The notes below the pieces were generated by a model. The model did not search any database and had not been told where the DNA came from. It worked only from the letters and a program-made list of their open reading frames with translations. A stretch of DNA of 64,000 nucleotides from an uncultured Fibrobacteria bacterium (GTDB lineage Bacteria; Fibrobacterota; Fibrobacteria; UBA11236): contig OY970309.1 in assembly GCA_963716395.1 (NCBI GenBank), forward strand, positions 1,600,001 to 1,664,000. Direction: 5' to 3'. This document shows, one piece after another, positions 32,921 to 49,015 of this stretch. Position 1 is the stretch's first letter; each line of letters begins with the position of its first letter. Made by a program: the position numbers and the translations under genes.

Positions 32921-33026
32921 GGTCTTCTCTCCGAGCCGGCCGGTTTCGGGTACATCCCGGTTTAGTCGCCGGAAATTCGCGGGGGAGCGGCCTGCCGGCC
33001 TCGCATGCGCCCCGGGAACTCCCGCA

Positions 33027-33284
33027 TTATACCACTCCCTCCACGGGAATGGCCTCGTCAATGAGCATAATGGGAATGTCTTCGCGAATCGGGTACAGGT
33101 ACTTTTTGTCTGCACGCAAGAGACCGGCTTCCATTTTCTCCTTCACGGTCTCGCCCGCGCGGTTCGTCAGCGACCCGGAGTCGCACAGGCTGTTCAGTTT
33201 GCTGACCAGGTCGGCCGGCGCCAAGGCTACGGGTTGCTTGGTTTCGGGGCAGCACAGGATTTCCAAGAGTTGCGGATCGACCAT
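33027..33284 (-). CDS. Trm112/YcaR-family small protein
   Basis: MVDPQLLEILCCPETK...YPIREDIPIMLIDEA. Confidence 0.92.
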   Translation of the reverse strand: MVDPQLLEILCCPETKQPVALAPADLVSKLNSLCDSGSLTNRAGETVKEKMEAGLLRADKKYLYPIREDIPIMLIDEAIPVEGVV

Positions 33285-33293
33285 GTCGTCTCC

Positions 33294-34250
33294 TTATTTT
33301 TCCATGTATTGCGCCAGGGCGGCGTATTTGGCTGCGCGCTTTTCCACCAGCTTGTCCAGTTCGACCTGTCGCAAGGTTTCCAACTCTTCTGAAAGCACGC
33401 CTTTTAGCGAGCGATACATGGCTTCGGGATCCCAATGCGCGCCGCCCAACGGCTCCTTGAGAATGCGGTCGACGACCTTGAGACCGAGCAAATCCGCGGC
33501 CGTGATGCGCATGGTTTCGCTCAGGTCCTGCTTCTTGCTGCTGTCGCCCCACAAGATGGCACTGCACGATTCGGGCGAAATCACCCCGAACCATGCGTTC
33601 TCCAGCATCAGGAGGCGGTCGCCCACGCCGATGCCGAGCGCGCCGCCGCTGGCGCCCTCGCCGATGACCACGATCAGAATGGGCGTGCGCAGCGCCGACA
33701 TCTCAGCCAGGTTGCGGGCGATGGCTTCGGCCTGACCGCGTTCTTCGGCGCCCACGCCCGGGTACGCGCCGGGCGTGTCGATGAAGGAAATGATGGGCAG
33801 CCGGAATTTTTCCGCCAGCTTCATGCAGCGCAGCGCCTTGCGGTAGCCTTCGGGATGCGCCATGCCGAAGTTGCGGTGTATGCTTTCCTTGGTATCGCGT
33901 CCTTTTTGATGGCCCATCACCACCACGCTTTGATCGCCGAGACGCGCCAGGCCCGTGACCAGGGCCGGATCGTCGCCGAAACAGCGGTCGCCGTGCAATT
34001 CCACAAAATCGGTGAACAGGTTTTGGATGTAGTCGAGGGTGTAAGGCCGGCCGGGGCGGCGGGCCAGCTCGACCCGGTTCCAGGCCGTGAGCTTCGAGGC
34101 GATTTTCTGCTGCAGCGCCTCTTTCTTGGCGATCAGGTGCTTGACGTCGGAGCTGGTGACCTCGCTGGTTTTGAGCAGGTCGTCGATTTTCATGGCCAAC
34201 TCCACCACGGGTTGCTCGAATTCCAGGTGCGGACCTTTGGGAACGGGCAT
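33294..34250 (-). CDS. accA: Acetyl-CoA carboxylase carboxyltransferase alpha subunit
   Basis: [31 protein letters not shown] and IDTPGAYPG. Confidence 0.97.
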
Positions 34251-34306
34251 GGCAGTAAAGGGAAGCTTTCCTTCCCGGTTTCGTCAATGCGGCACCAAGA
34301 ATCCGC

Positions 34307-34903
34307 TCAAAAACCGTAGGCCTGGCGCAATTGGTCGTTGGTGGGGAACGCGTCGTATTCTTCGCCGCGCGGCCCTTTCCATTTGCCGTCGACGTATTCG
34401 AGCAGCACCGGCGTATGCGATCCGTTGCTGTTGTTAACCAGCACGGTTTTGGTTTGGGGTGCGGCCGGAGCAGTCGACGTCGTCGTATCCTCTTCGACGA
34501 CGGTATCCACCACCAAATCGGTTTCGGGTTTTGCAACCACCACATAGCCGTCGCCGGATTCTTGGTAGTAATTGCCGCCGTAGTAATAGAGCGTCAGGCC
34601 GCCGGAATGCAAGACCAGCGCGTCGAGCGGCAGAAACGGCACCACAATGCCGATGGGCGGCGGCGCGAGGTAATAGGCGTGATGCCTGCGGTGATAGAAA
34701 TATCCGTTGTGGAAAAACAAATGGTTTCCTCCGACGTGAACGTCGAGATAGGCTTCGGGGTGATATCCGCCGCGGGCGAAACGCCCGGGACGGGCTTCCG
34801 CGGTTTGAACCGCGAGCAATCCCGCTGCGAGGAGCGCGGCCGACGACAACGACCTTTTGCGCAGCCATGGGAAACTTGGGAAAAACGCAGGCAAATTATT
34901 CAT
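34307..34903 (-). CDS. Exported Tyr/Gly-rich protein (DUF6515-like)
   Basis: Signal peptide; PPPIGIVVPFLP...YYYGGNYY...GYVVV; C-terminal NSNGSHTPV...GPRGEEY. Confidence 0.7.
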   Translation of the reverse strand: MNNLPAFFPSFPWLRKRSLSSAALLAAGLLAVQTAEARPGRFARGGYHPEAYLDVHVGGNHLFFHNGYFYHRRHHAYYLAPPPIGIVVPFLPLDALVLHSGGLTLYYYGGNYYQESGDGYVVVAKPETDLVVDTVVEEDTTTSTAPAAPQTKTVLVNNSNGSHTPVLLEYVDGKWKGPRGEEYDAFPTNDQLRQAYGF

Positions 34904-35047
34904 AACCGACCTCTTTTTTTCATTTGGAAACCCGGTGTGACCGGCATCAAAGCTTGCTCCGGGCGAGGATTCGCGTCGCTCTTCGGTCACGAAGATATCA
35001 ACCGTTTCGGGGGCGGTCCAGACGTGTTACAATCCGGATCCGCCGGG

Positions 35048-36679
35048 TTACTTTCGGAAATTCAGGTCGATGAGCGACACCGTTTCGGGGGCCGGAGTTC
35101 CCAGCAGCATCTTGACCTCGAGACGGCCGGGATCGCGGGTCGATAACACCTGCAAGGCGGTGGCGTAGGCGTCTTCGTCCAACGCGATGATGACGCCTTG
35201 CAAATCGAGTTTGCGCGCCAAGGAGTGTAAGGCGTCGATGTCGCCGATCACGTTCTCGCGCATAGCGCGGGGAATGGGCCCGCGGGGAAATTGCAGAAAA
35301 CCCACGAACTCGTAGCCCTCGAGCTTTTCGTTCACAATCAAATCGGCCAAGTCCTGCGCGCGCGCATTGGTGCCCAGAATGGCCACGCGTTTGACGTCTC
35401 CCAGGACGCGGCGCCAAAAGCGGCCGCCGTGGCTGAGGACGAGGCGCCATCCCATCAGCAGGGCCAGGCTGATGACGGCCGCGAGCGCGAACACCACGCG
35501 CGAATAGGCCCGTTCTTTCATGAAAAAGCTGCAGGAGAAAAACACCAGAAAGGCTTCGCATACCGTAAGGAACACGGTTTTGGGGCGCGGAAGCACCCGT
35601 CCGTATTCCCCGATGGCGGCCAGCGGCGCCAGCACCGACAGCGACGCCAGGGCATGCCAGAACCAATACAGGCCCGGCTCGGTAAACATGAGCAGGGGGA
35701 TGTGGAGGGCGTGCTCGTAGGCATCGGTGACGCCGGCCAGCACCGCGTTCACCAGCAGCAAATCCGCCAGCCAGCGCGGCCATTTCTGCAGCCGGGCCGA
35801 CACGAAATTCGCCAGGGCCAGTACGCCCACGCCGGCCTGCAGCAAGGTGTAGGGCAGAATGCGCAGCTCCAGGTGCTTGCGCGAGAAAATCACCATGGCC
35901 TCGTAGAAGTTGAAAAACGAACGCAGCGGACGGCTTTTGACGCTTTCGCCTTTGAAGTGGATGATTTGGGTGGCGGGGTGATAGAAGTTTCGTTTTCCAC
36001 TCAATTTGACGCGGAAGCAGAGATCGAGATCTTCGCCGTACATGAAGAAGTCTTCATCGAAGCCGCCCACCTGGCGGAACAATTCGGCGGGCAGGCACAA
36101 AAACGATCCCGACACCGCGTCGACTTCATGCGTCTTATTTTCGTCGAGATAGGTCAGGTTGTAGCGGCCGAACACCCGGCTGTTGGGAAACAACCCGCCC
36201 AGGCCGAACAGTTTGAACGCGGCCACGCGCGGCGAGGGAAAGCTGCGCTTGCACGCCAGTTGCAGCGAGCCGTCGCGGTTCACCACCTTGCAGCCCACCG
36301 CGCCCGCTTCCGGATGATCGCGGAAGAAGTCGGCCATGACCTGAAACGTGTCTTCGCGCACCAAGGTGTCGGGATTGAGGAACAGCAGCAACGGCTGGGT
36401 CGAGGCCGCCGCTCCGCGGTTGCAGGCCGTGCCGAAGCCCAGATTGCGGTCCAGCGAAATCCAGGTGGCATCGGGCCAGCGCGGTTTGAGCAGGGGCACG
36501 GTGCCGTCGCGCGAATCGTTGTCGCAGACGATGATCTCGGTGGCGCCCGAGAACTGGGCCGCGGCGTGGCGAATGCTTTGCAGGCAGGCGTCGAGGTATT
36601 CGCGTACGTTGAAGGCGACGATGATGATGGAAATTCCCGGCTCGCGCGGCGCCGGCGGTTCGGGATCGGGCCGGTTCAC
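35048..36679 (-). CDS. GT2 glycosyltransferase fused to TM helices and a CoA-binding-like Rossmann domain
   Basis: DNDSRDG, NLGFG, LNPD, GGFDEDFFMYGEDLDL and HFKGES; C-terminal VAILGT...YEFVGF. Confidence 0.9.
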   Translation of the reverse strand: MNRPDPEPPAPREPGISIIIVAFNVREYLDACLQSIRHAAAQFSGATEIIVCDNDSRDGTVPLLKPRWPDATWISLDRNLGFGTACNRGAAASTQPLLLFLNPDTLVREDTFQVMADFFRDHPEAGAVGCKVVNRDGSLQLACKRSFPSPRVAAFKLFGLGGLFPNSRVFGRYNLTYLDENKTHEVDAVSGSFLCLPAELFRQVGGFDEDFFMYGEDLDLCFRVKLSGKRNFYHPATQIIHFKGESVKSRPLRSFFNFYEAMVIFSRKHLELRILPYTLLQAGVGVLALANFVSARLQKWPRWLADLLLVNAVLAGVTDAYEHALHIPLLMFTEPGLYWFWHALASLSVLAPLAAIGEYGRVLPRPKTVFLTVCEAFLVFFSCSFFMKERAYSRVVFALAAVISLALLMGWRLVLSHGGRFWRRVLGDVKRVAILGTNARAQDLADLIVNEKLEGYEFVGFLQFPRGPIPRAMRENVIGDIDALHSLARKLDLQGVIIALDEDAYATALQVLSTRDPGRLEVKMLLGTPAPETVSLIDLNFRK

Positions 36680-37386
36680 CCGCCGCCCCGCAGCCGCAGG
36701 CGCAGCAGCAGAAACAAGGCCTCTTTCACGATGTCACCCGACATTTTGGAAACGCCGGCCACGCGATCCTTGAAGATGATGGGAATTTCCTTGATGCGGC
36801 AGCCGCGTTTCCACAGCTTGTAATTCACTTCGATTTGAAAGGAATACCCGTCGGAGCGGATGCCATCCAAATTGAGCCGGCGCAAAGCTTCGGCGCGAAA
36901 ACATTTGAACCCGCCGGTGACATCGTGCAACGGCATGCCCGTGACCCAGCGCGCATAGAGGTTGGCGAACCAACTGAGCAGCAGCCGGCCCATGGGCCAA
37001 TTCACCACCGTGACACCGTGCACATAACGGCTGCCCAGCACCAAATCGCAATCGGCGGCGGCCGCCAGAAATTCGGGAATATAGGCCGGGTCATGCGAGA
37101 AATCGGCGTCCATCTCGAATACAAAATCGTAGCCCTGCTCCAGAGCGTAGCGAAAGCCCAGCACGTACGCCGAGCCCAATCCCATTTTTCCCGGCCGCTC
37201 CAGCAGATGCAGATGCGGGCGCTGCACCATCTGCCCGCGCACAAAGCTTCCGGTGCCGTCGGGGGAATGGTCGTCGATGACCAGCACGTGCAGGCCGAGG
37301 TTCAAGGCCTCGAGCGTCGCCAGCATGCGCGGGAGATTTTCGATCTCGTTGTAGGTGGGAATGATGACGAGAATGCGGTCGGCCAC
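36676..37386 (-). CDS. Polyprenol monophosphomannose synthase (Ppm1/DPM1-like GT2)
   Basis: LVIIPTYNE, DDHSPDGT, GKMGLGSAY, EMDADFSH, GSRY, TGGFKCFR and GYSFQIE; start is GTG at 37386 or 37392. Confidence 0.92.
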   Translation of the reverse strand: MADRILVIIPTYNEIENLPRMLATLEALNLGLHVLVIDDHSPDGTGSFVRGQMVQRPHLHLLERPGKMGLGSAYVLGFRYALEQGYDFVFEMDADFSHDPAYIPEFLAAAADCDLVLGSRYVHGVTVVNWPMGRLLLSWFANLYARWVTGMPLHDVTGGFKCFRAEALRRLNLDGIRSDGYSFQIEVNYKLWKRGCRIKEIPIIFKDRVAGVSKMSGDIVKEALFLLLRLRLRGGG

Positions 37387-37388
37387 GT

Positions 37389-38276
37389 TCACTCCTTGAC
37401 CGCGGCGGGGTCCAGGCTTTCCAGTTGCGCGTGCAATCCGCGCAACCGCATCCCGGTGTCGCGTTCCAGCCGACTGCAATCGAGGCCCGAACGCAGCGGC
37501 CGCGCTGCCGGAAGCCGCAGGTCTTCGGTGCGTATCGCTTGGATCAATCCCGCGTCGAGGCCGTAGAATTCGGCCACGGCGCGCGCCCATGTGAGACGGC
37601 TCACCAGATCGGATCCGGCGGCATGGTACAGGCCGGAGCATCCCCGGCGCAACAGGGCCCACACGGCCAGGGCCAAATCTTCGGCCCAGGTCGGGTTGCC
37701 GATTTGATCCGTGACGGCGCGTACGGGTTTACCCGCGGCCAAAGTTTCGCGCACGAATTCGGTAAAGCTTTTCTTCGCGCCCGGAAGCGCGCCCCACAGC
37801 CACATGGTGCGAAGCACCAATGACCGTGGTGATCCCGCCAGGACCAGGGCCTCCGAGGCGAGCTTGGCGCAGCCGTATTGGTTGAGCGGATGCACGGGAT
37901 TCCCTTCGGCATAGGGGCCGCTTTGGCCGTCGAAAACGTAATCGGTGGAAATCTGCACCAGCGGCAGGCCGGTTTCCGCCATCCAACCCACCAGCTCGCG
38001 GTTGAGGTGATCGTTCAAGGCCGGATTCTTTTCGCAGCCGTCGACGTCGGTGTAGGCGGCGGCGTTGAATATCCAATCCGGCCGACGCCGCGCCAACACC
38101 GCCTGCAGGGCCTCGCGCTCGCCGAGATCGGCCCGATCGTAACTGGCAAGATACTGGGGAAGCCGCGGCGTCTCCTCCAGGCCCAGACCCGACAGTTCGA
38201 CTTCGCCGCCCGCGGCGGCGGTGCGCAGCAGGCTTTGGCCCAAGAGGCCGTTGCAACCCGCAATCAGAATTTTCAC
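37389..38276 (-). CDS. rmlD: dTDP-4-dehydrorhamnose reductase family SDR
   Basis: GCNGLLG, NAAAYTDVDGCE, ISTDYVFDG, YGCAK and DQIGNPT; GTGA overlap with the upstream gene. Confidence 0.85.
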   Translation of the reverse strand: MKILIAGCNGLLGQSLLRTAAAGGEVELSGLGLEETPRLPQYLASYDRADLGEREALQAVLARRRPDWIFNAAAYTDVDGCEKNPALNDHLNRELVGWMAETGLPLVQISTDYVFDGQSGPYAEGNPVHPLNQYGCAKLASEALVLAGSPRSLVLRTMWLWGALPGAKKSFTEFVRETLAAGKPVRAVTDQIGNPTWAEDLALAVWALLRRGCSGLYHAAGSDLVSRLTWARAVAEFYGLDAGLIQAIRTEDLRLPAARPLRSGLDCSRLERDTGMRLRGLHAQLESLDPAAVKE

Positions 38277-39223
38277 GGGGCCGTGCCGACGGAGGGCGCG
38301 TCGGGCGTCACGGCGGCGATGGGCGACGCCGCGGGCGCGAAACGCTGGTTGATCATTTCGCCCAGAAGGCCGATGGACACGAATTGTACGCCCACGATCA
38401 CGAAGGCCACGCCCGCCAGCATCAACGGACGCACATGCAATTGACCCGTCACCGCCCAACTTACGGCAAAGGCCAGCAGCACGGCGAAACCGGCGGCGGA
38501 GAACAACAGGCCCACGAAGCCGAAGAGATGCAGCGGCCGGCGCGTATAGCGGTGCAGAAATACCAAGGTGAGCAAATCGAACAGGCCGCGGGCCCGCCCC
38601 CAGCCGTATTTGGAGCGGCCGAAGCGCCGCGGACGGTGATCGACGGCCTGCTCTTCGACTTTGAAGCCGTTCCAATGCGCCAGCACCGGAATATAGCGGT
38701 GCAATTCGCCGTATAAATCCAGACTTTTCACCACCTCGGCGCGGTAGGCCTTGAGTCCGCAATTGAAATCGTGCAGACGCAGGCCCGCCACGGCGCCGGT
38801 CAGGGCGTTGAACAGCTTCGAGGGCCAGGTTTTATGCCAGGGATCGCGGCGCACGCGTTTCCAGCCCGACACCAAATCGGCGCCGTTTTCGAGGCGCTGC
38901 AAGAGGGCGGGAATTTCGGCCGGGTTATCCTGCAAGTCGGCGTCCAAGGTGATGACGTAGCGGCCGCGGGCGCGCCGGAAACCCTCGGCCAGGGCCGCGG
39001 CCTTGCCGCAATTGCTGCGGAAGCGCAAACCTTGGAAGCGGGGGTCACGCGCGTGAACCTGTTCGATGCGCGCGAAGGTGCCGTCGGTGCTGCCGTCATC
39101 GATGATCCAGGCTTCGAAGGCCAGGCCCGCCCCGTCGCATACCGAACGGATTTCGTCGCACAGAAGGGGTACGTTTTCCGCTTCGTTGAAGGCGGGAATG
39201 ACGAGGGAAAGCGTCGGAGTCAT
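38273..39223 (-). CDS. GT2 polyprenyl-phosphate glycosyltransferase (ArnC/GtrB-like) with two C-terminal TM helices
   Basis: IDDGSTDGT, LDADLQDNP, LHDFNCGLKAYR, YGELHRYIP and SIGLLGEMI. Confidence 0.9.
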   Translation of the reverse strand: MTPTLSLVIPAFNEAENVPLLCDEIRSVCDGAGLAFEAWIIDDGSTDGTFARIEQVHARDPRFQGLRFRSNCGKAAALAEGFRRARGRYVITLDADLQDNPAEIPALLQRLENGADLVSGWKRVRRDPWHKTWPSKLFNALTGAVAGLRLHDFNCGLKAYRAEVVKSLDLYGELHRYIPVLAHWNGFKVEEQAVDHRPRRFGRSKYGWGRARGLFDLLTLVFLHRYTRRPLHLFGFVGLLFSAAGFAVLLAFAVSWAVTGQLHVRPLMLAGVAFVIVGVQFVSIGLLGEMINQRFAPAASPIAAVTPDAPSVGTAP

Positions 39224-39290
39224 GGGGCGGTTCGCAACGCGGGTATCAAAGTTCAAAATTCACCTTTTGGAGTTGTAGACGCAACCCGCT

Positions 39291-40325
39291 TCATTTTGGA
39301 ATTCGGCGTTCGACGGGCGCATGCTTTTTTCTTCCCATCACAAAGTAGAATCCCCCTCCCAGCATCACCGCCATGCCGATCACCGAGGGCAGAAAGGCCA
39401 GGGCCGCCGCGGCTGCAGGCCGGTCGAAGCCCGCATGTGCACGCGCCAGCACGCCGGGCATGCCGTAGAGGTAGGCGCCCAGGCTTTGCGGCAAGCCCCA
39501 GCCACCCACGTTGACGGGCAGAATCGCCGCCAGGGCGATCAGCGGGATAAAGGAGAAAAACAGGGAAGGGGCGATGGAAATGCGCAGGGCGCCGGCGCTG
39601 AGCGCATGCACGGCGATGCGCAGCACCTGCACCAGGCAGGCCACGAAGAACACCGCGGCCATGTTTTTCCACCGCCCGCGATAGGCGGCCAGCGAAGCCT
39701 GCATTTTGGCATAGGCCGCATCGATGCGCCGGAGGCCCAGGGCGCGGATGCCGGTGTGCAGCGCGGCGGCCGCATGCCGGCTGAGCAGCACGGCGAGCAA
39801 ACAGCCGAAGCATACCGATACCGCGCCGACGATGGCCAGCAAATGGTGCAAGAGCGTTAGGGGCAATTCCCGGCGGTGGAATTCGACAACCAGCGAGAGC
39901 AGGGAAAAGAACGCCAGGGCCGCAAAACCCAAAACGCGATCGAGCACCGTGGCCGCGGCGGCCTTGCCGACGCCCGCCGTGCGTTCGCTGTGGTGCACGT
40001 CCCAGACGCGCAGCGCGTCGCCGCCCACGGTTCCGGGCATGAAATTGTTCAAAAACATGCCCGCGTAATACGAGCGGAAGCAGGCGGCGAAACCCAGGTC
40101 GATGCCCTGCAGGCGCAGCAGCAAATGCCATTGATACGCGCCGCCGAGGATGGAAAGGAAAAAAACCACCGCCGCCGCCAAGGCCCAGCCCGGTTGGGCC
40201 GCCAACAGGGCCGTCCCGATGCGCAACCCGCCGTTGCCGCGCACCACCCACACCAGCATGCCGATGGTGAGCAGCAGGCGCAGCCAAAAGGCCGGGGAAC
40301 GCAGGGTTCTAAGCACGCCGCGCAT
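39291..40325 (-). CDS. Lysylphosphatidylglycerol synthase TM-domain (UPF0104) flippase-like protein
   Basis: Polytopic; GMFLNNFMPGTVGGDALR, VLDRVLG and LPVNVGGWG. Confidence 0.88.
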   Translation of the reverse strand: MRGVLRTLRSPAFWLRLLLTIGMLVWVVRGNGGLRIGTALLAAQPGWALAAAVVFFLSILGGAYQWHLLLRLQGIDLGFAACFRSYYAGMFLNNFMPGTVGGDALRVWDVHHSERTAGVGKAAAATVLDRVLGFAALAFFSLLSLVVEFHRRELPLTLLHHLLAIVGAVSVCFGCLLAVLLSRHAAAALHTGIRALGLRRIDAAYAKMQASLAAYRGRWKNMAAVFFVACLVQVLRIAVHALSAGALRISIAPSLFFSFIPLIALAAILPVNVGGWGLPQSLGAYLYGMPGVLARAHAGFDRPAAAAALAFLPSVIGMAVMLGGGFYFVMGRKKHAPVERRIPK

Positions 40326-41487
40326 TCCACTCCCCATAGGCGGCGAGCAGCGCCGCGCGCGTTTCCCGATAGGCCGGTTCCCAGGTATGCGCCGCGGCCC
40401 AGGTCCGGCCATGGTCGGAGAGGCGTTGCCACACGCCGGGGTCGCCCAGCACTTGTTCCAGCCGCTGGGCGAAGGCCGCCGCATCGCCGAAGGGAACCAG
40501 AAATCCGGTTTCACCGTGGCGCACGCTGTCGCACAAGCCGGGCACGTCCGTGGCAACCACCGGGGCGCCGCAGGCATTGGCTTCGATGGAGGTGAGGCCC
40601 CACCCTTCCTTGAGCGACGAATTCACCACCACGGCGGCCCGGTGGTACAGTTCGATTTTGCGCGCTTCGGAGACGAATCCCAGAAAATCCACCGCCGCCT
40701 CCTGGCCCAGGTCGCGCGCCAGTTTCCGTAACCTCGGCGTATCGTCTCCCGTGCCGGCGATGGCGAGCCGTGTGGCCGGGCGCTTTTCGCGCAGCGCGCG
40801 CAGGGCGCGCAACAGCACGTCCAGCCCTTTGTAACGTTTGACGCGCCCCACGTATAGAACCAGGTTCGGTTCGCGCGCGGGCGGCGCCGCCAGACGGTAA
40901 CGTTCCGGATCCACCCCTTCGGCCGCGATGGAAACCGGATGGAAACCCTTGGCCGCCAATTCGCGGCGGCTACTCTCCGATCCCGTCAGCACGCGCACGC
41001 CGCGGTAGGCCCGGGGCATGAGGGCCTCGCAGGTGAGCACGTACAGCGCCGCCGGCCAGGCGGTTTCGCGGAACAGGGTGCGGCCGAAGAGATGGTGCAA
41101 TTGCAGCACCACCGGGCGATTGCAGCACCAGGGTGCGAAGAAGGCGATCTTGTTGGAATCGTCGAGCACGGCGTCGATGCGCAGATCGCGGCACCAGCGG
41201 CGCAGGCCGAACCAGACGGTGAAGTTGAAAAGCAACCCGTTCCCGCGTCGCAGCACGCGCACGCCGTCGATTACCTCTTCGGCCGGGGCGCCCGCGAAGG
41301 CATGCGAAACCTGAAAACAGGCAAAGCCCTCGGCGGCCAGGCGCCGGGCCACTTCGTGCAAATGCACTTCGGCGCCTCCCGCGGCGGGGTTGCGGGGATC
41401 GCGCCAGTTCACCAGCAAAAGGCGCAGCGGCCGGAACGGCGGTTCGCCGGAAAGACGGGCCGCCGCCGTACGCGCTTCGGAATTCAC
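40309..41487 (-). CDS. GT4 family glycosyltransferase
   Basis: NWRDPRNPAAGGAEVH, YVGRVKRYKG and EGWGLTSIEANACG (EX7E). Confidence 0.93.
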   Translation of the reverse strand: MNSEARTAAARLSGEPPFRPLRLLLVNWRDPRNPAAGGAEVHLHEVARRLAAEGFACFQVSHAFAGAPAEEVIDGVRVLRRGNGLLFNFTVWFGLRRWCRDLRIDAVLDDSNKIAFFAPWCCNRPVVLQLHHLFGRTLFRETAWPAALYVLTCEALMPRAYRGVRVLTGSESSRRELAAKGFHPVSIAAEGVDPERYRLAAPPAREPNLVLYVGRVKRYKGLDVLLRALRALREKRPATRLAIAGTGDDTPRLRKLARDLGQEAAVDFLGFVSEARKIELYHRAAVVVNSSLKEGWGLTSIEANACGAPVVATDVPGLCDSVRHGETGFLVPFGDAAAFAQRLEQVLGDPGVWQRLSDHGRTWAAAHTWEPAYRETRAALLAAYGEWNARRA

Positions 41488-44327
41488 AATTTGGAAGGTT
41501 TGCCGGTGTCGTGTGCGGTGCTACCGGGGACTCCCAAACCGCCGCGCTGCGCGGCCTGGATTTGGGCATCCAGTTGCTCGACCTGCTGGGCCACCATGCT
41601 GGCATATTTGTGGCTTGGGTTCTGGGCCAGCCATTCCGAGAGGATCCGACGTGTATTTAAGAGGTCGCCCCGTTTTTCATACATCTCGGCCAAAGTGTAC
41701 ACCGGTTCGAAATCGCTGGGGTCCTGGCTATGAAGGTCGATAAGCAGCGATTCGGCGCGAGCCTCCTGACCGGTTTGCTGATAGAGCTGCGCCAGGTTCA
41801 TCATGAACACATTGCCTTCGGGGCCGGCGGCCTTGATGCCTTTGCGAAAGGCCGTTTCGGCCTTCTGGGTTTCTCCCATTTCCGCATAGAGTTGGCCCGC
41901 GTAGTAGTAGACGCGCCATTCGCTGGGTAAAAGCCGTGCGTTGAGGTCGAGGTACTTCTGCGCAAAGGCGAGTTTGGCTTCTTTGTCGCTGTCGAGCGCG
42001 GCCAAAACCGACTTGATCGAATCGGACGGCGAGGAGATTTTGCGCAGTTCGACTTCCCGGCTCTGGATGTCCTCCAGCTTCTGCTGCGCCCATTGCACCA
42101 GACGGAAGTTGGTGGCCGAGTAATTCGTCAGCAACCCTTGGGTGTTGAGATCGACGTACACGTTCGGATCGCCCAATCCGCGGTAGCGGTACACCGAATC
42201 CACCAGGCGGGTGGTGGCGGCGACATCGATTGCCTGGTTCTTCGGCTCTTCGACCAGGGTGTACACCATGCCCTCCATGACCGTGTACTTCTCCAAGCCC
42301 ATTTCGTTTTCGTCGCCCACCGTGACCGCGAACTCCATGTTCCACTGCGGATAGTTGTTCTGCACGATGTTGAGCACCATGATGTCCTGCACCCGGATAT
42401 AGCTGCGGCGTTGCAGCGTCACATGGATCTGGGAGTTGGGAATCCGGATTTCCACCGGTCCCTTGAAACTCCACGGTTGGGGCTCGAGCTTTTCGATTTC
42501 ATCGTCGGTGAACCCGATTTTGAGCGCGGGCTGGTGGCTGCGCAATTGTTTGATGTACCAGTCGGTGTTGACCAGCGACAGGTTGACCACGCGCACGTCG
42601 CGGCGGATGCGTTCGCCTTCCTGCATGAACCACAGGGGAAAGGTGTCGTTGTCGCCGTTGGTGAACAGCACCGAATGCGGCCGGCAGGACATGAGCAGGT
42701 TGTAGGCGTAATCCCAGGGCGTGTAGTTGCCGGTGCGGTTGTGCTCATGCCAATTCGACCAGGCCGGCACCGCCAGGGCCAGAGCGGCCAGGGCAAGGCC
42801 CGTCGGCCGGACCCAGCGCTTGCGCCGGGGATCTTCCCCCATCGCCTGCAGCAGCAGGGCCGCCGAGACGCCGAAGAGAATGCCCATGAACATGAATCCG
42901 GGCGTGAAGAAATAATCGCGGTCGCGCACTTCGATGTGCACTGGCGCCGGCTTCTGGTTGGGATCGAAACCCGTCGACTTCCAGTACTCGTAGTCGGCGC
43001 TTTCGAGTTGGGTGCCGTCGGCGAAATTCATGTAGAAGATCATGCCGTAGCTGGTGATGCCGTACAGCACCAAGAGGTAAATACCCAACTCTCGGTGGCG
43101 CTTGTACAAGAGATAGCCGCCGTAAAGAAAGGGCAGTTGCATCAGCACGAACAGCAGGAATTCGATGCCGGGATGGGTGCGCAGGCCGAGGTAGAGGGTG
43201 GGAAACTCGATGCGCTTTCCGAAAATATGGCGTACTACGGGTTCGCTTTCATCCGCCCGGCTTTCCCCGGTTTTCCAGGGCAGGTATTGGGCCAGCATGT
43301 AGCCGCCGTAGCCGATATGCGGGTAGACGAGCAACTGGTTTTGCACGTGCGCGCGGCGGTGCAGGGCGCGTTTCAGCATCGATTCCGATCCGTATTGCTT
43401 GCGTTCCAGGTAATCCTTAAAGTTGGACAGGGTCTGCCCGTTGTAGGCGCCCGCATACACGCCGCCCTCGTCGATGTCGGGATTGGTGGAGGAGCGGATG
43501 GGAACATACAGGTAAACCGAGAATCCAATCAAGGCCACAAAGCACACCCAGGCCGAAAGCGACCAGCGATGTTTCCAAACCGGCGTCTTCGACAGCAGGC
43601 CTCCGCCGAGGCAGACGAGCAGCGCCGCACCCATATACACCACGAAATTGCCGATGTCATACAGCATGGACAGCAGCATCAAGCCCGAGAAAATGAGGGG
43701 GATGTTGGTCCGGTTTTCCTTGTCGGAGATGATCAAGAACAGGCCGACCACGGGCACGGTGATGAAGGCGAAATGACTCACGCCCATGCCCAGACTGCTG
43801 ATATACGCGATGAGGATGAGGGTGCGGTCGGCGTGCGGCGTGCCGCGGTGCTCGTACCATTCCAACACCAACCACGAGGTGATCATCACCACCAGCATCG
43901 AGAGGGTGTACATCTCGGCTTCCACCGCGCTGAACCAGAAGGTGTCGCAGAAGGTGACCAGAAAGGCGGCGATGATCCCGCCGGTGTACTTCGCAAACGA
44001 CGAAATGGATTCGCGGAATACGATGCGCAGCACCCGCACCGTGAACAAAAACACCATCCAGATGGTCAGCGCGCCCGCCAGCACGGCCAGAAAATTCATG
44101 CGCACGGCCAGTTCCTTCATCGGCATCACCATCAGGAATAGGCGTCCCAGCAGCATGAACAAAGGGTTGCCGGGCGGATGAGGGTTGCCGAGGATGCTGG
44201 CCGAGGCCAGGAATTCGCCGCAATCCCAGAACGACACCGTGGGCGCCATGGTCTTGAAGTAGGTGAAAAGGGCCACGGCGAATACCGAGAAACCCAGGAG
44301 ATTCCGCAATTTCTTGTCTTGGGTCAT
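41484..44327 (-). CDS. DUF2723 / TMEM260-family polytopic membrane protein with C-terminal TPRs (predicted GT-C)
   Basis: PTVSFWDCGEF, HPPGNPLF, FWFSAVEAEMY, RDRDYFF and FTNGDNDTFPLW. Confidence 0.9.
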   Translation of the reverse strand: MTQDKKLRNLLGFSVFAVALFTYFKTMAPTVSFWDCGEFLASASILGNPHPPGNPLFMLLGRLFLMVMPMKELAVRMNFLAVLAGALTIWMVFLFTVRVLRIVFRESISSFAKYTGGIIAAFLVTFCDTFWFSAVEAEMYTLSMLVVMITSWLVLEWYEHRGTPHADRTLILIAYISSLGMGVSHFAFITVPVVGLFLIISDKENRTNIPLIFSGLMLLSMLYDIGNFVVYMGAALLVCLGGGLLSKTPVWKHRWSLSAWVCFVALIGFSVYLYVPIRSSTNPDIDEGGVYAGAYNGQTLSNFKDYLERKQYGSESMLKRALHRRAHVQNQLLVYPHIGYGGYMLAQYLPWKTGESRADESEPVVRHIFGKRIEFPTLYLGLRTHPGIEFLLFVLMQLPFLYGGYLLYKRHRELGIYLLVLYGITSYGMIFYMNFADGTQLESADYEYWKSTGFDPNQKPAPVHIEVRDRDYFFTPGFMFMGILFGVSAALLLQAMGEDPRRKRWVRPTGLALAALALAVPAWSNWHEHNRTGNYTPWDYAYNLLMSCRPHSVLFTNGDNDTFPLWFMQEGERIRRDVRVVNLSLVNTDWYIKQLRSHQPALKIGFTDDEIEKLEPQPWSFKGPVEIRIPNSQIHVTLQRRSYIRVQDIMVLNIVQNNYPQWNMEFAVTVGDENEMGLEKYTVMEGMVYTLVEEPKNQAIDVAATTRLVDSVYRYRGLGDPNVYVDLNTQGLLTNYSATNFRLVQWAQQKLEDIQSREVELRKISSPSDSIKSVLAALDSDKEAKLAFAQKYLDLNARLLPSEWRVYYYAGQLYAEMGETQKAETAFRKGIKAAGPEGNVFMMNLAQLYQQTGQEARAESLLIDLHSQDPSDFEPVYTLAEMYEKRGDLLNTRRILSEWLAQNPSHKYASMVAQQVEQLDAQIQAAQRGGLGVPGSTAHDTGKPSKL

Positions 44328-44337
44328 GAAGCGATCC

Positions 44338-44772
44338 TTAGGTGGGAGCAGGGGTTCCGTCGGCCGCGGAAAGCTGGCGTGCCACCGCGTCGAGCACGCC
44401 GTTTACGAAACGGCTGCTGTTTTCGGTGGAAAATTTTTTGGCGATTTCCACGGCCTCATTGATGCATACCTTAAAGGGCACGTCGGGCACCTGCAACAGT
44501 TCGGCGATGGCCGTGCGCAGAATGATGCGGTCGATGACGGCGAAGCGGCCCACATCCCAGTGGGCGGAAACCTCGGACAGGCGGCGATCGATTTCCGGAC
44601 CGTGAGCCGAAACCGCGCGCGCCAGTTTGAGGCCGTAAGCCTGGGCTTCAGGCGGCACGGGCGGATCTTCGGGGGCCAAGGTGGTCGCAGCCTGTTCCAG
44701 GGTGGTTCCGCCCACTTCGGCGGCGTACAGGATTTGCAGGGCGAATTCGCGTCCCCGGCGGCGGGAAATCAT
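44338..44772 (-). CDS. nusB: Transcription antitermination factor NusB
   Basis: SRRRGREFALQILY, IDRIILR, INEAVEIAKKF and FVNGVLD. Confidence 0.96.
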   Translation of the reverse strand: MISRRRGREFALQILYAAEVGGTTLEQAATTLAPEDPPVPPEAQAYGLKLARAVSAHGPEIDRRLSEVSAHWDVGRFAVIDRIILRTAIAELLQVPDVPFKVCINEAVEIAKKFSTENSSRFVNGVLDAVARQLSAADGTPAPT

Positions 44773-45231
44773 CTAGAACTGATCCCACAGGGTGGCCATC
44801 TCCACCGCGGCCAACGCGGCGTCGAAGCCCTTGTTGCCCGCCTTCGCGCCGGCGCGTTCCAGCGCCTGGTCCAGGGTCTCGACGGTGAGCACCCCGAAGG
44901 CTACGGGGATGGCGCCGTCGGCGACTTCGGCCACGCCCCGGGTCAGAAGCTGCACGACCTGGTCGTAATGCGGCGTATCGCCGCGAATCACGCAGCCAAG
45001 CGCGATCAACGCCTGGTGTCGCTTGGCGACCGCGAGGCGCTTGAGCGCCTGCGGAATCTCCGCCGCGCCCGGCACCCAGATCACGGTGAGGTCCTTCTCC
45101 TGGGCGCCGTGCCGCAGCAGGCAATCGGTGGCGCCATGCAGCAATTGCTGCGTGATCAGGGCGTTGAAGCGCGACACCACGAGGGCGAAGCTTTTTCCCT
45201 GGGCCTGGAGTTGGCCGGTGATCACGTTCAT
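44773..45231 (-). CDS. ribH: 6,7-dimethyl-8-ribityllumazine synthase
   Basis: VVSRFN, WVPGAAEIP, GCVIRGDTPHYD, FGVLT and GNKG. Confidence 0.95.
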   Translation of the reverse strand: MNVITGQLQAQGKSFALVVSRFNALITQQLLHGATDCLLRHGAQEKDLTVIWVPGAAEIPQALKRLAVAKRHQALIALGCVIRGDTPHYDQVVQLLTRGVAEVADGAIPVAFGVLTVETLDQALERAGAKAGNKGFDAALAAVEMATLWDQF

Positions 45232-46394
45232 GATCTTTCCTTTCGCCGGAGTTTGCGCGGCGGTGCCCGGCCCGGAAAGGGGGTTTGGCGTGCGATATGC
45301 AGGCCGTACCCTTCCAGACCTTGGATGCGTTTGGGGTGGTTGGTCAAAAGATTCAGCCGCCGGATGCCCAGGTCGTAGAGGATTTGCGCCCCGATGCCGT
45401 AGGTGCGAGCATCCATGCCCGCGCTGTGATGAGAGCGCATGCGTGGACTGCGGCCGCGCACGTCTTCCGCGGCATAGCCTTCGAGTTTGCGGCCGAAGTC
45501 TTCCTCGGGGCTGACCTGGCGCATATAGAGGAACACCCCGCCGTCGCGGCCAATGGCGTGCAGGCCCTGCAGCAGCAACTCGCCGCAGTCGCAGCGCCGC
45601 GACCCGAACACGTCTCCGAACAGGCATTCGGAATGCACGCGCACCGGAACGGCGTGCCCGGGCGTGAACGGTTCTTTCACCAAAGCCAGGTGCTTGCGGC
45701 CGTGGATCAAATCTTCATACACGTGCGCGCGGAACTCCCCCTGGGGCGTGGGCATGTGAAACAGGCCTATCGGGCGCACCAGCTTTTCGCGCACCCGCCG
45801 GTATTGAATCAACTCTTCCACCGAAAGGATTTTGAGGCCGTGCTTTTTCGCGAAGCGCTGGCAATCGGGCAGGCGCGCCATCGAGCCGTCTTCATTCATG
45901 ATTTCGCAGATCACGCCCGCGCCGCCGAGCCCCGCCAGGTGCACGAGATCGACGGCGGCTTCGGTGTGGCCGGCGCGCACCAGCACCCCGCCTTGCAGGG
46001 CTTTGATGGGGAAGATGTGGCCGGGGCTCACGAAGGCCTCAGGCCCGAGCGCGGGATTGGCCAAGGCGCGTGCCGTCAGGCTGCGGTCGGCCGCGGAAAT
46101 GCCGGTGGTGGTGCCGTCGCGCGCTTCCACCGAAACCGTGAACGCCGTGTCATGGCGCGAGCCGTTTTTTTCGGCCATGGGCGGCAGGCGCAGTTGCTCT
46201 ACGCGCCGCGCCGACAGGGCTACGCAAATGAGGCCGCGCGCGTGTTTGGCCAGAAAATTGATTTTCGCCGGCGTGGATTTGGACGCGGCGAAAATCACGT
46301 CGCCTTCGTTTTCGCGATTGGCGTCGTCGACCACGACGACCGCGCGTCCGTGGCGCAAATCGGCCAGCACCTCGGCCACGCTATGAAACGCCAT
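45228..46394 (-). CDS. ribB: DHBP synthase fused to a degenerate GTP cyclohydrolase II domain (RibBA/RibBX-like)
   Basis: DDANRENEGD, TAFTVSV, TTGISAADR, PGHIFP and GHTEA; the C-domain keeps RVHSEC...RCDC but lacks QEGRGIGL. Confidence 0.9.
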   Translation of the reverse strand: MAFHSVAEVLADLRHGRAVVVVDDANRENEGDVIFAASKSTPAKINFLAKHARGLICVALSARRVEQLRLPPMAEKNGSRHDTAFTVSVEARDGTTTGISAADRSLTARALANPALGPEAFVSPGHIFPIKALQGGVLVRAGHTEAAVDLVHLAGLGGAGVICEIMNEDGSMARLPDCQRFAKKHGLKILSVEELIQYRRVREKLVRPIGLFHMPTPQGEFRAHVYEDLIHGRKHLALVKEPFTPGHAVPVRVHSECLFGDVFGSRRCDCGELLLQGLHAIGRDGGVFLYMRQVSPEEDFGRKLEGYAAEDVRGRSPRMRSHHSAGMDARTYGIGAQILYDLGIRRLNLLTNHPKRIQGLEGYGLHIARQTPFPGRAPPRKLRRKERS

Positions 46395-47046
46395 ATCCCC
46401 ATTTTTCCAGAGCCAACCATTGGGAGGCGCCGGCATCGCCGGCCGGGTCCGCGCCGCGCCGCGACATTTGTCTTTCCACGTATTTGGCGAGAATGTCGAC
46501 TTCGAAGTTGAGGCGCTGGCCCTTGCGCAGGTTCCCGAGATTGGTGAGTTGCAAGGTGTGCGGAATCACCGCAAAGCGCAACGCGTTCCCTTCGACCGCG
46601 GCGATGGTAAGGCTCACTCCCGACAAAGCCAGCGAGCCTTTATACGGGCAATATTGCAGAAAGGATTCCGGGAGCGCGACCGCGAATTCCAGCCCCGCGC
46701 GCGGCAAAGATTTGACGGCGACCACTTCGCAGACGCCGTCGGCATGGCCGAGCACGAAATGCCCGCCCAAGGCGGTTTGTGGAGTTGCCGCCGGTTCCAG
46801 ATTGACCGTGTCGCCGCTTTTCCACCCGGACAAGGTCGACTTCGAGAGGGTTTCGGGCACGGCGCAAACCGAGAATCCTCCCGGCAATACCCGTTCCACG
46901 GTCAGACACACGCCGTCGCAGGCCACGCTGTCGCCGACTTGAAGTTTTTCCGCGAGACGGGGGGAGGCCAGGGTAAAGCGTATCGCCTCGCCGGCCGCAA
47001 CCCGACCGCGCACCGTCCCCAGATCTTGCACGATGCCAGTGAACAT
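46381..47046 (-). CDS. ribE: Riboflavin synthase (alpha type)
   Basis: MFTGIV N-terminus, GDSVACDGVCLT, GGHFVLGH and NFEVDILAKY. Confidence 0.95.
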   Translation of the reverse strand: MFTGIVQDLGTVRGRVAAGEAIRFTLASPRLAEKLQVGDSVACDGVCLTVERVLPGGFSVCAVPETLSKSTLSGWKSGDTVNLEPAATPQTALGGHFVLGHADGVCEVVAVKSLPRAGLEFAVALPESFLQYCPYKGSLALSGVSLTIAAVEGNALRFAVIPHTLQLTNLGNLRKGQRLNFEVDILAKYVERQMSRRGADPAGDAGASQWLALEKWGYGVS

Positions 47047-47083
47047 CGCTGAGCTTCTTTCCCCGAACTTTTCGGCAACCCGA

Positions 47084-48160
47084 TTACCTGCGCGGCGTTT
47101 TCCTCTGAAACTCCGTCAGCGTATCCTCTCCGAGCGTCGTAAATCTATGAAAAACAAGGGATTTCGCCCATGACGGACGTAGAGTATCCTCCCAACGCTC
47201 GCCACGGGGCAGAAGCTTGGGCGCGGTAAACAAAAACAGGCGATCGCAGTATCCCGAATTCAAAAGCGGTGCCCAAACCGAGCGGCCGCCTTCGACCAGC
47301 ACCTGGTGATACCCTTTCTCTTCGAACAGATCCAGCAAGGATCGCAGCAATTCGGATTCGTCGCCGGTGGAAACCCGGCAGGAGTCGACCCATTCCGGCA
47401 GGCCCCGAATGGCCCGAGGGGTCAGCAAAGTGGTTTTGGCCGCCCGGCGTCGCAACAAGAACCAGCGCGGATTCAGTCTGTTCCCGCGTGTCAGGATCAG
47501 GGCTTCGGGCACGTGTCCGGAAACGAGCCGTGGCGTCAAACGCGGATTGTCGCGGCGCAAGGTGCCGCCGCCGATGAGCACGGCGTCCGCCGCGGCGCGC
47601 AGAGCATGGGCGCGCTTCCGGCTCTCCCGTCCGGTCAGAACGGTTTCCACGCCGGGGTTCTGGTTGATGCGTCCGTTCAGGCTTTGCGCGATCTTCATCG
47701 TGATTTGCGGGCGGCCATGCCGGAGGAAAAAAAAGAAGCCCGTATAAAATTCTTGGGCGCGTTCCTGAAGCAAGCCCGCCGCGGCGTCGATACCGGCGCG
47801 GCGCAATTCGGCCAAGCCTTTTCCCGACATGAGCGGATTGGGATCGTTGCAAGCGGCCACCACGCGGCTTACACCGGCCGCGATCAGGGCGCGCGTGCAC
47901 GGGGGCGTCTTGCCGAAATGCCGGCAAGGCTCCAGGGTCACATACAGCGTCGCGCCGCGGGCATTTTCCCGCGCCTGTTCCAAGGCGACGATCTCGGCAT
48001 GGGCCTGTCCGGCGGGCCGGGTGGCGCCTTGGCCGACGAGGCGACCGTGTTTCATCAGCACCGCGCCCACGGGTGGATTGGGCAGGGTGCGGCCTTTGAC
48101 TTGAAGGGCTAGCTCGAAGGCCATTTCCATGCAGGCCTGATCACGCGCTTTTTCCGGCAT
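47084..48160 (-). CDS. ribD: Bifunctional diaminohydroxyphosphoribosylaminopyrimidine deaminase/reductase
   Basis: PNPPVGAV, HAE, TLEPCRHFGKTPPC, DNPRLT and VEGG. Confidence 0.95.
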   Translation of the reverse strand: MPEKARDQACMEMAFELALQVKGRTLPNPPVGAVLMKHGRLVGQGATRPAGQAHAEIVALEQARENARGATLYVTLEPCRHFGKTPPCTRALIAAGVSRVVAACNDPNPLMSGKGLAELRRAGIDAAAGLLQERAQEFYTGFFFFLRHGRPQITMKIAQSLNGRINQNPGVETVLTGRESRKRAHALRAAADAVLIGGGTLRRDNPRLTPRLVSGHVPEALILTRGNRLNPRWFLLRRRAAKTTLLTPRAIRGLPEWVDSCRVSTGDESELLRSLLDLFEEKGYHQVLVEGGRSVWAPLLNSGYCDRLFLFTAPKLLPRGERWEDTLRPSWAKSLVFHRFTTLGEDTLTEFQRKTPRR

Positions 48161-48963: not shown

Positions 48964-49015
48964 TGGATTGCAAACAGCCGACGGCGGGGAGTGGGCCGAT
49001 GGGGCCGCCATCCCC

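Follow-up and report, generated by a model that had tools for sequence, protein, structure and literature searches.

We describe a block of seven genes at 35048-44327, on the minus strand, of a 64,000-nucleotide stretch of DNA (the window) from an uncultured Fibrobacteria bacterium. The window spans positions 1,600,001-1,664,000 of a closed genome (G000; 3.75 Mb, 99.2% complete), and G+C around the block is 59-65%. These genes form an operon that is conserved in Fibrobacterota and centers on a genuine bacterial member of glycosyltransferase (GT) family GT117, the family of human TMEM260.

The genes were delimited by open reading frames (ORFs), Pfam and NCBIfam matches and inspection of start codons. 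The first encodes the GT117/TMEM260-like GT-C enzyme (44327..41484; 947 aa), with PF11028 and tetratricopeptide repeats (TPRs). It is followed by a retaining, nucleotide-sugar-dependent GT4 (41487..40309; 392 aa; PF00534, E 2.8e-43, and PF13439), a UPF0104/LPG_synthase_TM membrane protein of about 344 aa that is a candidate flippase (40325..39291; PF03706, E 1.1e-30), and an ArnC/GtrB-type GT2 with C-terminal transmembrane (TM) helices, which is 316-327 aa long and runs from 39256 or 39223 to 38273. The remaining three genes encode an RmlD-type 4-ketoreductase of the dTDP-4-dehydrorhamnose reductase family (38276..37389; 295 aa; PF04321, E 3.3e-63), a soluble DPM1-like GT2 that is a candidate polyprenol-phosphate mannose synthase (37392..36676; 238 aa), and a GT2-TM-CoA_binding_3 fusion protein (36679..35048; 543 aa; PF00535, E 4.1e-21; PF13727, E 1.1e-11). 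Start and stop codons overlap as GTGA at four junctions (41484-41487, 38273-38276, 37389-37392 and 36676-36679), which suggests translational coupling in this genome, and the GT4 and UPF0104 genes share 17 nt.

An earlier, sequence-based note on this DNA (the original prediction) had described a minus-strand run of these seven families with several GTGA or short overlaps, and this is borne out here. Its statement that no wzx, wzy, waaL or priming phosphoglycosyltransferase domain was recognised also stands, as neither the first three domains nor a catalytic Bac_transf domain was found in the block with Pfam and NCBIfam, but the last gene does match the N-terminal half of a phosphoglycosyltransferase (PGT) profile. 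ORF 39253-40287 was rejected as the UPF0104 gene; it has no family, and the true gene, with its ATG at 40325 and GGAG upstream, is in the frame of ORF 39291-40577.

The GT117 protein

The 947-aa protein matches PF11028 at profile positions 1-177 of 179 (E 2.1e-45; 155.1 bits against a cut-off of 24.2), is encoded by the single PF11028 gene of its genome and has Pfam TPR matches at residues 790-930. Human TMEM260 (9rql_A) was found by phmmer with the first 620 residues at E 1.3e-19, in two stretches comprising the N-terminal GT-C module and the Rossmann-like domain, and with a profile of 20 relatives at E 3.6e-30 (PDB 9rql/9rqm/9rqn). The protein is a true bacterial GT-C enzyme of the GT117/TMEM260 family. 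The original prediction, which had called it a DUF2723 relative of TMEM260 with TPRs, is upheld by the PF11028 match, the homology to 9rql and the presence of a Rossmann-like and TPR lobe. The TM core occupies residues from about 1 to 530, the Rossmann-like periplasmic domain about 536-720 and the TPR domain about 727-930; in the structural model, strands and helices alternate at 552-691 and helical repeats fill 727-928.

TMEM260 was defined in 2023 as a protein O-mannosyltransferase (CAZy GT117) that is inactive as D52A, and the accessible text of that paper mentions only 'distant homologs' in bacteria (PMC10214176). According to the available part of a 2026 preprint on its structure (10.64898/2026.03.17.711096), the human enzyme combines a GT-C core of 11 helices with a Rossmann-like and a TPR domain. 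Mannose is held by D52 and H67 of a sugar-recognition motif, by Y267 and by R355 of TM helix 10, and phosphate by R264, and the catalytic base, D441, lies in the Rossmann-like domain. Activity requires D52, H67, R355 and D441, with D52A and H67 substitutions being inactivating, and extended peptides are taken via the TPR and Rossmann-like domains.

The bacterial protein has FWDCGEF at residues 33-39. In HMMER alignments, both single-sequence and profile, D35 corresponds to human D52, H50 to H67 and D559 to the catalytic base D441, and in the profile alignment R470 corresponds to R355. All four residues are invariant in 77 family members (alignment A2), and D559 lies within an invariant TNGDNDTFPLW. 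The first-loop aspartate to which the original prediction had pointed is thereby confirmed as D35. The codons, on the minus strand, are at 44223..44225 (D35), 44178-44180 (H50), 42651..42653 (D559) and 42918-42920 (R470). R309 and Y312, in ERKQYGSES (43392..43403, minus strand), are the proposed equivalents of R264 and Y267 in the human donor-loading loop (FLREEYGTFS) from a collinear motif that is left unaligned by HMMER, with the same order and similar spacing after P-I-x-S. R, Q, Y and G of this R-x-x-Y-G motif are invariant in 14 sequences from several phyla. An 81-aa query covering the donor-loading-loop stretch and a 14-sequence sub-profile were both without a match to TMEM260.

The AlphaFold2 model (77 sequences) has a predicted local distance difference test score (pLDDT) of 92.5 and a predicted template modelling score (pTM) of 0.90. 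The fold comparison covered GT-C enzymes other than TMEM260 itself. Among 48,161 chains, the top match in VIA-align was Pmt1-Pmt2 (Z 22.6; 397 residues aligned; root-mean-square deviation 4.3), next came Pmt4, and then AglB and STT3 (20.1), ArnT (19.4), and AftB and PglB (19.1). GT-C matches overall had Z of 17-23 and included ALG12, ALG9 and DPY19, and TPR structures matched residues 732-930 with Z of 13-16. Of the Foldseek matches at E<=0.001, which numbered 18, GT-C enzymes made up 16. The GT-C fold proposed originally is thus confirmed among the structures compared. The PMT Pfam family is not matched by the protein. No bacterial study of GT117, TMEM260-like proteins or TMEM260 was found in the literature searched, whose coverage excludes subscription journals; within that coverage, the earlier remark that no characterised bacterial TMEM260-type pathway is known holds.

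Enzymes encoded beside GT117 and sugar supply

The best solved relative of the DPM1-like GT2 is the dolichol-phosphate mannose synthase of Pyrococcus furiosus (5mlz; E 1.9e-27 over residues 6-232), and its match to ArnC reaches only E 6.6e-9. That its closest solved relative is 5mlz and not ArnC/GtrB favors the original proposal of a candidate polyprenol-phosphate mannose synthase. Orthologues adjoining GT117 in other phyla are 50-59% identical. The window's genome has no close paralogue of the gene, and the protein reaches no NCBIfam equivalog cut-off. A gmd gene is present (505.8 bits; cut-off 415), so GDP-mannose is made in this genome; bifunctional ManC (PF01050) was without a match in the genome.

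The ArnC-like GT2 matches ArnC structures over its full length (9hwj, E 6.4e-47), followed by GtrB (5ekp, E 2.4e-27) and dolichol-phosphate mannose synthase (E 3.6e-17); NF007986 scores 163.5 bits, under its cut-off of 529. The RmlD-like protein scores 208.8 bits with TIGR01214, just under the equivalog cut-off of 224, and GxxGxxG, STDYVFDG and YxxxK motifs are visible in its translation. Its gene has a GTGA overlap on either side, and a second RmlD-like gene and two RmlC genes occur elsewhere in the genome. For GT4, whose gene overlaps the GT117 stop codon by GTGA, no NCBIfam model reached its cut-off. No solved relative of the UPF0104 protein was found by sequence. We take this family to contain the flippase domain of MprF, and from the family name and MprF we infer that the protein may be a flippase.

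The GT2 fusion matches TIGR03025 (polyprenyl glycosylphosphotransferase) at profile positions 2-219 of 445 only and has a weak rhamnosyltransferase match (TIGR01556, E 7.8e-7). PF02397 (Bac_transf) is unmatched in the window's protein and in its orthologues at loci L002, L021 and L015. The orthologue at locus L019 (10417-12495, plus strand; 692 aa) keeps a C-terminal part of Bac_transf (E 5e-13), and the Fibrobacterota gene thus looks like a truncated GT2-PGT fusion. A PGT domain hidden by a frameshift was considered and rejected: the overlapping ORF 34998-35783 has no family, and close orthologues end at the same place. Four complete PGTs are encoded elsewhere in the genome.

Two PMT_2 genes or pairs in the same genome adjoin ArnC/GtrB-like GT2s, as in classic pairs of donor synthase and GT-C enzyme (G000:C1:151798-157173 and 2503202-2505945). 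In the first, PMT_2 lies at 151.8/156.7 kb and GT2 at 152.9-153.4 kb; in the second, PMT_2 lies at 2505.5 kb and GT2 at 2503.2-2503.8 kb. That other GT-C genes adjoin a GT2 of their own supports reading the GT2 genes next to GT117 as donor synthases.

Proposed mechanism

Family membership, fold, conserved catalytic residues, a gene order that is itself conserved, near-universal presence in the phylum and gmd were observed directly. A polyprenol-phosphate-mannose-dependent periplasmic transfer by GT117 is a well-supported prediction. We infer that the sugar is mannose, that UPF0104 is the flippase and that the acceptor is protein, and likewise what the four accessory enzymes do. A protein acceptor is the best single reading of the GT117 mechanism, and one that we consider about evenly balanced between right and wrong.

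On this reading, the DPM1-like GT2 would make polyprenol-phosphate-beta-mannose from GDP-mannose at the cytoplasmic face, and the lipid-linked sugar would then be flipped, with UPF0104 as the candidate flippase. Within its membrane core, GT117 would bind the donor with D35, H50, R470 and probably R309/Y312. An exported polypeptide, not yet folded out of its extended form and gripped by the periplasmic Rossmann-like/TPR lobe, would receive mannose on a Ser/Thr hydroxyl by inverting transfer, with D559 as the general base. Further sugars could be supplied or added by RmlD, the ArnC-like synthase, the GT2 fusion and GT4, rhamnose being the obvious candidate.

Conservation of GT117 and its neighborhood

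PF11028 is matched in 196/201 Fibrobacterota genomes, a tally that takes in one unpublished genome (G194), and in 150/152 of the high-quality ones; GT117 is also present in the Bacteroides thetaiotaomicron control. Among 8000 candidates scored, 3083 were relatives of the GT117 protein at E<=0.001, and the closest relatives with a source name were Fibrobacteria and Fibrobacterota metagenome bins. With one genome per species in GTDB, at least 661 of 663 pattern matches encode a relative. The best 73 loci came from Fibrobacterota, Zixibacteria, KSB1, Calditrichota, Latescibacterota, Gemmatimonadota, Marinimicrobia, Cloacimonadota, Ignavibacteria, Chlorobi and Bacteroidota.

Linkage was surveyed by tblastn of the window's proteins against these best 73 loci, which were grouped by phylum; 11 loci with <8 kb of flank were dropped, which left 62. 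A Ppm-like gene was called at >=45% identity and >=90% coverage in the same locus. Locus L004 was counted with Fibrobacterota because its GT117 is 49% identical to that of the window. The Ppm-like gene accompanies GT117 in 7/11 Fibrobacterota loci, which also hold the ArnC-like gene (8/11), the GT2 fusion (6/11) and ribH (9/11). It does so in 3/21 loci of the other candidate phyla of the FCB (Fibrobacteres-Chlorobi-Bacteroidetes) group, 1/23 of the Bacteroidota/Ignavibacteria/Chlorobi group and 2/7 unlabelled loci, or 13/62 overall. The linkage of GT117 and Ppm for which the original prediction proposed a survey across FCB genomes is therefore conserved in Fibrobacterota and scattered in the other FCB phyla.

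All seven genes occur in unchanged order at locus L002. The genus Fibrobacter has GT117-ArnC-Ppm-GT2 fusion, with GT4, UPF0104 and RmlD missing from the locus. In KSB1, Calditrichota and some unlabelled loci, the order is GT4-GT117 ... UPF0104 ... RmlD-Ppm, and accA lies 3' of the block in several other phyla too. The link between GT117 and Ppm is old and recurrent, though inherited synteny may account for part of the block.

In the window, the block is part of a longer array on the same strand, with ribD, ribE, ribBA, ribH and nusB upstream and a DUF6515 gene and accA downstream; hence it is not an island. The nusB gene (44338..44772, minus strand; PF01029, E 1.9e-31) has its 3' end 11 nt upstream of the GT117 start. 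The DUF6515 gene (34307-34990, minus strand; 227 aa; PF20125, E 8.4e-15) lies 57 nt 3' of the block, and accA (33294-34250, minus strand; PF03255, E 6e-135) lies downstream. Consensus scans of 33000-48500 gave 5 promoter-like sites (3.5 +/- 1.9 in shuffles) and 24 terminator-like sites (19.2 +/- 4.0 in shuffles), none above chance. These counts are close to those of shuffles, so the scan does not inform the operon limits.

Such an arrangement bears on whether the seven genes form one pathway. It could be that only GT117 and one or both polyprenol-phosphate-sugar synthases cooperate, with GT4, UPF0104, RmlD and the GT2 fusion serving other envelope pathways and being neighbors by ancient synteny. 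In the KSB1, Calditrichota and unlabelled loci, DUF4837, purE, a permease and a PfkB kinase stand between the genes; that the same genes are interleaved with housekeeping genes elsewhere means that part of the linkage may be old synteny, and this counts against a dedicated pathway of seven genes. The reduced Fibrobacter locus, the continuation of the array into rib/nusB and accA, and promoter and terminator signals no higher than in shuffles agree with the looser association. We nevertheless consider it unlikely, given the four GTGA overlaps that suggest translational coupling in this genome, the recurrence of the order GT4/GT117 ... UPF0104 ... RmlD-Ppm in several phyla, and the fact that mannose plus rhamnose is the published core disaccharide in Bacteroidota, in the accessible text of a review (PMC12871550).

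Tandem GT117 pairs were seen in KSB1-type and unlabelled loci, with strong PF11028 matches in both copies (L026, 9320-12112 and 12206-14866; L024, 9998-12679 and 12743-15391; L019, 551-3244 and 3279-5990). Of the two enzymes, one could use protein as its acceptor and the other the first sugar.

The O-glycosylation sequon in exported proteins

Bacteroidota glycosylate hundreds of exported proteins at one sequon. In the part of the 2025 review that was available, a mannose-rhamnose(-glucuronic acid) core is described at the O-glycan's reducing end, and deletion of the outer-glycan locus leaves hexose-deoxyhexose (PMC12871550). The pathway is said there to resemble eukaryotic O-mannosylation, and the machinery for the mannose-rhamnose (Man-Rha) core, the flippase, the transferase and the ligase had yet to be discovered as of that review. 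No identified Bacteroidota O-oligosaccharyltransferase was found in the literature searched, some of it available in part, and no relevant paper on Fibrobacter glycoproteins was found there.

The Bacteroidota sequon D-(S/T)-(A/I/L/V/M/T), i.e. D[ST][AILVMT], was counted in the window's genome using crude gene calls, a heuristic signal-peptide rule and two gene sets (2853 and 2967 ORFs). In 455 predicted exported proteins, 1475 sequons were present against 560 expected from composition (2.64-fold; within-protein shuffles 553 +/- 24). The excess was 1.28-fold in 1680 cytoplasmic and 1.83-fold in 718 membrane proteins, and the second gene set gave 2.66-fold for exported (1673 vs 629) and 1.31-fold for cytoplasmic proteins. 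Control motifs, with E or N at position 1 or with the motif reversed, gave 0.86-1.02. D alone is enriched at position 1; position 3 has an excess of L (3.2), T (3.0), V (2.6-2.7), A (2.3-2.4) and I (2.1-2.2) and a deficit of P, Q, D, E, F and R. The sequon is carried by 336/455 exported proteins, and the excess is 2.32-fold even after removal of the top 5% of proteins.

The same pipeline gave 1.10 for 200 kb of E. coli K-12 (29 vs 26.3 in 25 exported proteins) and, for the fetched loci, 1.56 in Bacteroidota/Ignavibacteria/Chlorobi, 1.74 in other FCB phyla and 2.19 in Fibrobacterota. Sequon enrichment had already been stated for Fibrobacterota in the accessible part of the review, so our result confirms that report and is not new (PMC12871550).

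GT117 proteins themselves carry the sequon. The last 40 residues hold at least one in 35/77 members, with 45 in total against 6.3 expected, although these are kin and not independent. A GT117 clade was observed to share a tail motif, K-D-T-A-L-K-G, in a Pro/Ala/Gly-rich extension; the motif is absent from the window's protein, whose tail has only D-T-G. It is a canonical sequon in a periplasmic tail that is probably disordered.

A GT117-family O-mannosyltransferase homologue, a mannose-lipid synthase and a coupled rhamnose-pathway reductase are a striking fit to the published Man-Rha core. We tentatively suggest, while thinking it rather improbable as a whole, that the operon is the core machinery that starts the Man-Rha O-glycan at D-(S/T)-x, a glycosylation common to Bacteroidota and Fibrobacterota. 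GT117 would then add the first mannose to exported proteins from polyprenol-phosphate-mannose, in a bacterial parallel to eukaryotic O-mannosylation, the coupled ArnC-like/RmlD pair would give lipid-linked rhamnose as the second sugar, and the system would date back to the ancestor of the FCB group. Genomes that are negative for GT117 would have a redundant GT-C enzyme, e.g. of the YfhO type, or a recent loss.

The current Bacteroidota model, in the accessible text of the review, is instead en-bloc transfer, with an oligosaccharyltransferase and a ligase, both yet to be discovered, acting on flipped lipid-linked glycans (PMC12871550). In keeping with that model, GT117 could be an en-bloc O-oligosaccharyltransferase or a glycan ligase. 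GT4 and the GT2 fusion would build Man-Rha on undecaprenyl (pyro)phosphate, UPF0104 would flip it, and GT117 would move the whole core to D-(S/T)-x or join an outer glycan to the core. The block does encode cytoplasmic transferases, RmlD and a flippase-like protein, and enzymes of the oligosaccharyltransferase type (AglB, STT3 and PglB) are among the closest folds. However, the residues with which human TMEM260 binds just one beta-mannose and one phosphate are conserved, the most conserved neighbor is a gene like that of dolichol-phosphate mannose synthase, which would be useless for an en-bloc route, and the fusion is without a catalytic priming domain in Fibrobacterota. The genome G042, described below, also argues against an essential role of GT117 in the sequon system. 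Taken with these points, we regard en-bloc transfer by GT117 as very unlikely.

Genomes without GT117 and rival acceptors

The PF11028 match is missing in 5/201 Fibrobacterota genomes, among them G042, a single closed contig of 1.6 Mb that is 98% complete and has 32% G+C. GT117 was not found in G042 by Pfam, by tblastn or with the family profile run on every ORF of >=150 aa (best hit 20 bits), and PMT_2 and Wzy_C were not found either.

What this genome does contain, together with several features of the window's own genome, weighs against a GT117 that mannosylates proteins at this sequon. G042 retains GT4, UPF0104, the ArnC-like gene (54% identity) and the DPM1-like gene (58.6%), which still adjoins accA. 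Its 147 predicted exported proteins carry the sequon at 2.15-fold (267 vs 124; shuffles 129 +/- 10.5), with the same position preferences as in the window's genome, and a 186 kb sample of the GT117-negative draft genome G053 gave 1.94-fold. The sequon is thus not visibly dependent on GT117, and since the DPM1-like gene is kept in G042 in the absence of GT117, polyprenol-phosphate-mannose has other users. Either GT117 was recently lost from G042, or it is redundant, or the sequon is served by another enzyme. The result lowers the specific sequon claim and leaves the family assignment of GT117 untouched.

Other candidate transferases exist. A YfhO-type GT-C of about 780-830 aa is common to G000, G042, G053 and the B. 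thetaiotaomicron control (G000:C1:1478023-1480239 and G042:C1:1257156-1259498; copies 42.5% identical), with no GT2 synthase gene adjoining it in G000, and it is a candidate rival transferase for the D-(S/T)-x sequon. The window's genome has five PMT_2 GT-C enzymes as well. The human acceptor domain, IPT/TIG (PF01833), has 0 matches in the 99.2% complete genome. IPT/TIG domains are thereby ruled out as acceptors in this genome, and the bacterial acceptors, if protein, must differ from the human ones. Sugar specificity is not readable from sequence, and the proposed equivalence to R264/Y267 is an argument from motif. The two Leloir transferases and the PGT-derived protein of the block would fit a lipid-linked glycan. 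Most characterised bacterial systems of GT2 and GT-C enzymes modify glycans or lipids and not proteins.

The same observations can be read as favoring a glycan or lipid acceptor. GT4, the GT2 fusion and RmlD would build, at the cytoplasmic face, a lipid-linked glycan or glycolipid that UPF0104 flips, and GT117 would decorate this glycan, or lipopolysaccharide (LPS)/lipid A, with mannose taken from polyprenol-phosphate-mannose, in the manner of GtrABC, ArnC/ArnT and CsbB/YfhO. The block's sugar-nucleotide reductase would suit such a pathway, as would the part of the catalytic domain that is still present in the L019 orthologue of the fusion, the retention of partner genes in G042, the GT117-independent sequon excess in G042 and G053, and the tendency of known bacterial three-component systems to act mostly on glycans. 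Against this, the sole characterised member of the family is a protein O-mannosyltransferase, and the base and the donor residues are invariant in bacteria. A lobe of the peptide-binding type (Rossmann-like plus TPR) is retained, the top structural match is a protein O-mannosyltransferase, and GT117 is a single-copy core gene among housekeeping genes and not part of a variable polysaccharide locus. A glycan or lipid acceptor is in our view doubtful, though a serious contender.

At the two places in G042 that are syntenic to GT117, a diverged GT-C was looked for and rejected; Big_2 (bacterial Ig-like) repeat surface proteins are encoded instead. One (1152 aa; L158:5534-8992, minus strand) adjoins the ArnC-like gene and the other (1065 aa; L159:6043-9240, plus strand) adjoins GT4.

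G042 and G000 also have in common a family of membrane proteins that have C-terminal TPRs and about 8 hydrophobic segments and whose membrane part is without a Pfam family (G042:C1:1376956-1378704; G000:C1:1985070-1986599 and 3229691-3230938). A Protein Atlas look-up of the G042 protein gave 'hypothetical protein' clusters only (best score 0.90).

Comparison with known systems

Human TMEM260, the GT117 O-mannosyltransferase of IPT domains in the endoplasmic reticulum, belongs to the same Pfam family by direct homology, has the same three-part build (GT-C core, Rossmann-like domain and TPRs), and has its D52, H67, R355 and D441 conserved as equivalents in the bacterial protein. A plausibly equivalent donor would come from the enzyme resembling dolichol-phosphate mannose synthase. 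In contrast, the bacterial protein exceeds it by 240 residues, has additional sequence between its Rossmann-like and TPR domains, and would act in the periplasm rather than the lumen of the endoplasmic reticulum, on what would be a bacterial polyprenol donor. The IPT/TIG acceptor is absent, and the bacterial gene is in an operon with its putative donor synthase.

The actinobacterial and fungal protein O-mannosyltransferases (PMTs; GT39) with Ppm1/DPM1 follow the same logic of a GT2 mannose-lipid synthase and a GT-C enzyme. Pmt1-Pmt2 is the top structural match of GT117 (Z 22.6), yet the GT-C family differs: GT117 is without MIR domains and, as in TMEM260, has its catalytic base in a soluble Rossmann-like domain.

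In GtrA/GtrB/GtrC, ArnC/ArnE-F/ArnT and CsbB/GtcA/YfhO, an ArnC/GtrB-type GT2, a putative flippase and a GT-C enzyme are likewise encoded together. Here, the flippase candidate is UPF0104 (MprF-like) and not GtrA or ArnEF, and the GT-C enzyme is GT117. Three-component polyprenol-phosphate-sugar systems modify O-antigen, lipid A or teichoic acids, whereas the precedent for GT117 is protein.

With general O-glycosylation in Bacteroidota, our system has in common the over-representation of the same sequon in exported proteins, and the block encodes a mannose-lipid synthase candidate and RmlD, compared with a published core of Man-Rha in the available text (PMC12871550). It differs in being without an LFG-type wzx locus, in a sequon excess that persists without GT117 in G042, and in the en-bloc transfer of the published model, as far as the accessible text of the review gives it (PMC12871550).

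Significance

The accessible part of the Bacteroidota review suggests looking for homologues of eukaryotic O-mannosylation (PMC12871550). GT117 and its block can be tested as a candidate for the machinery, still missing, by which protein O-glycosylation begins in Bacteroidota and relatives, in a phylum that is sister to Bacteroidota and has the sequon signal in common with it. The block gives a short, concrete list of genes for knockout and assay in bacteria that can be cultured (Fibrobacter, Flavobacterium or Bacteroides). In addition, a gene family linked to human disease (SHDRA syndrome) now reaches into a bacterial system, which might be easier to work on. G042, with the sequon signal in the absence of GT117, points to a rival, the YfhO-type GT-C, and shows that such candidates can be told apart by comparative genomics.

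Other features near the block

Downstream of accA lies a gene for a 902-aa protein with TPRs at both ends (window 30407-33115, minus strand), and TPR proteins of 890-915 aa likewise lie 3' of the GT2 fusion in the Fibrobacter loci L021 and L015. The wider array is flanked by a gene for a 1150-aa subtilase (Peptidase_S8; 48968-52420, plus strand) and, on the other side, by one for a PilT/T2SSE-type ATPase (28757-29857, minus strand).

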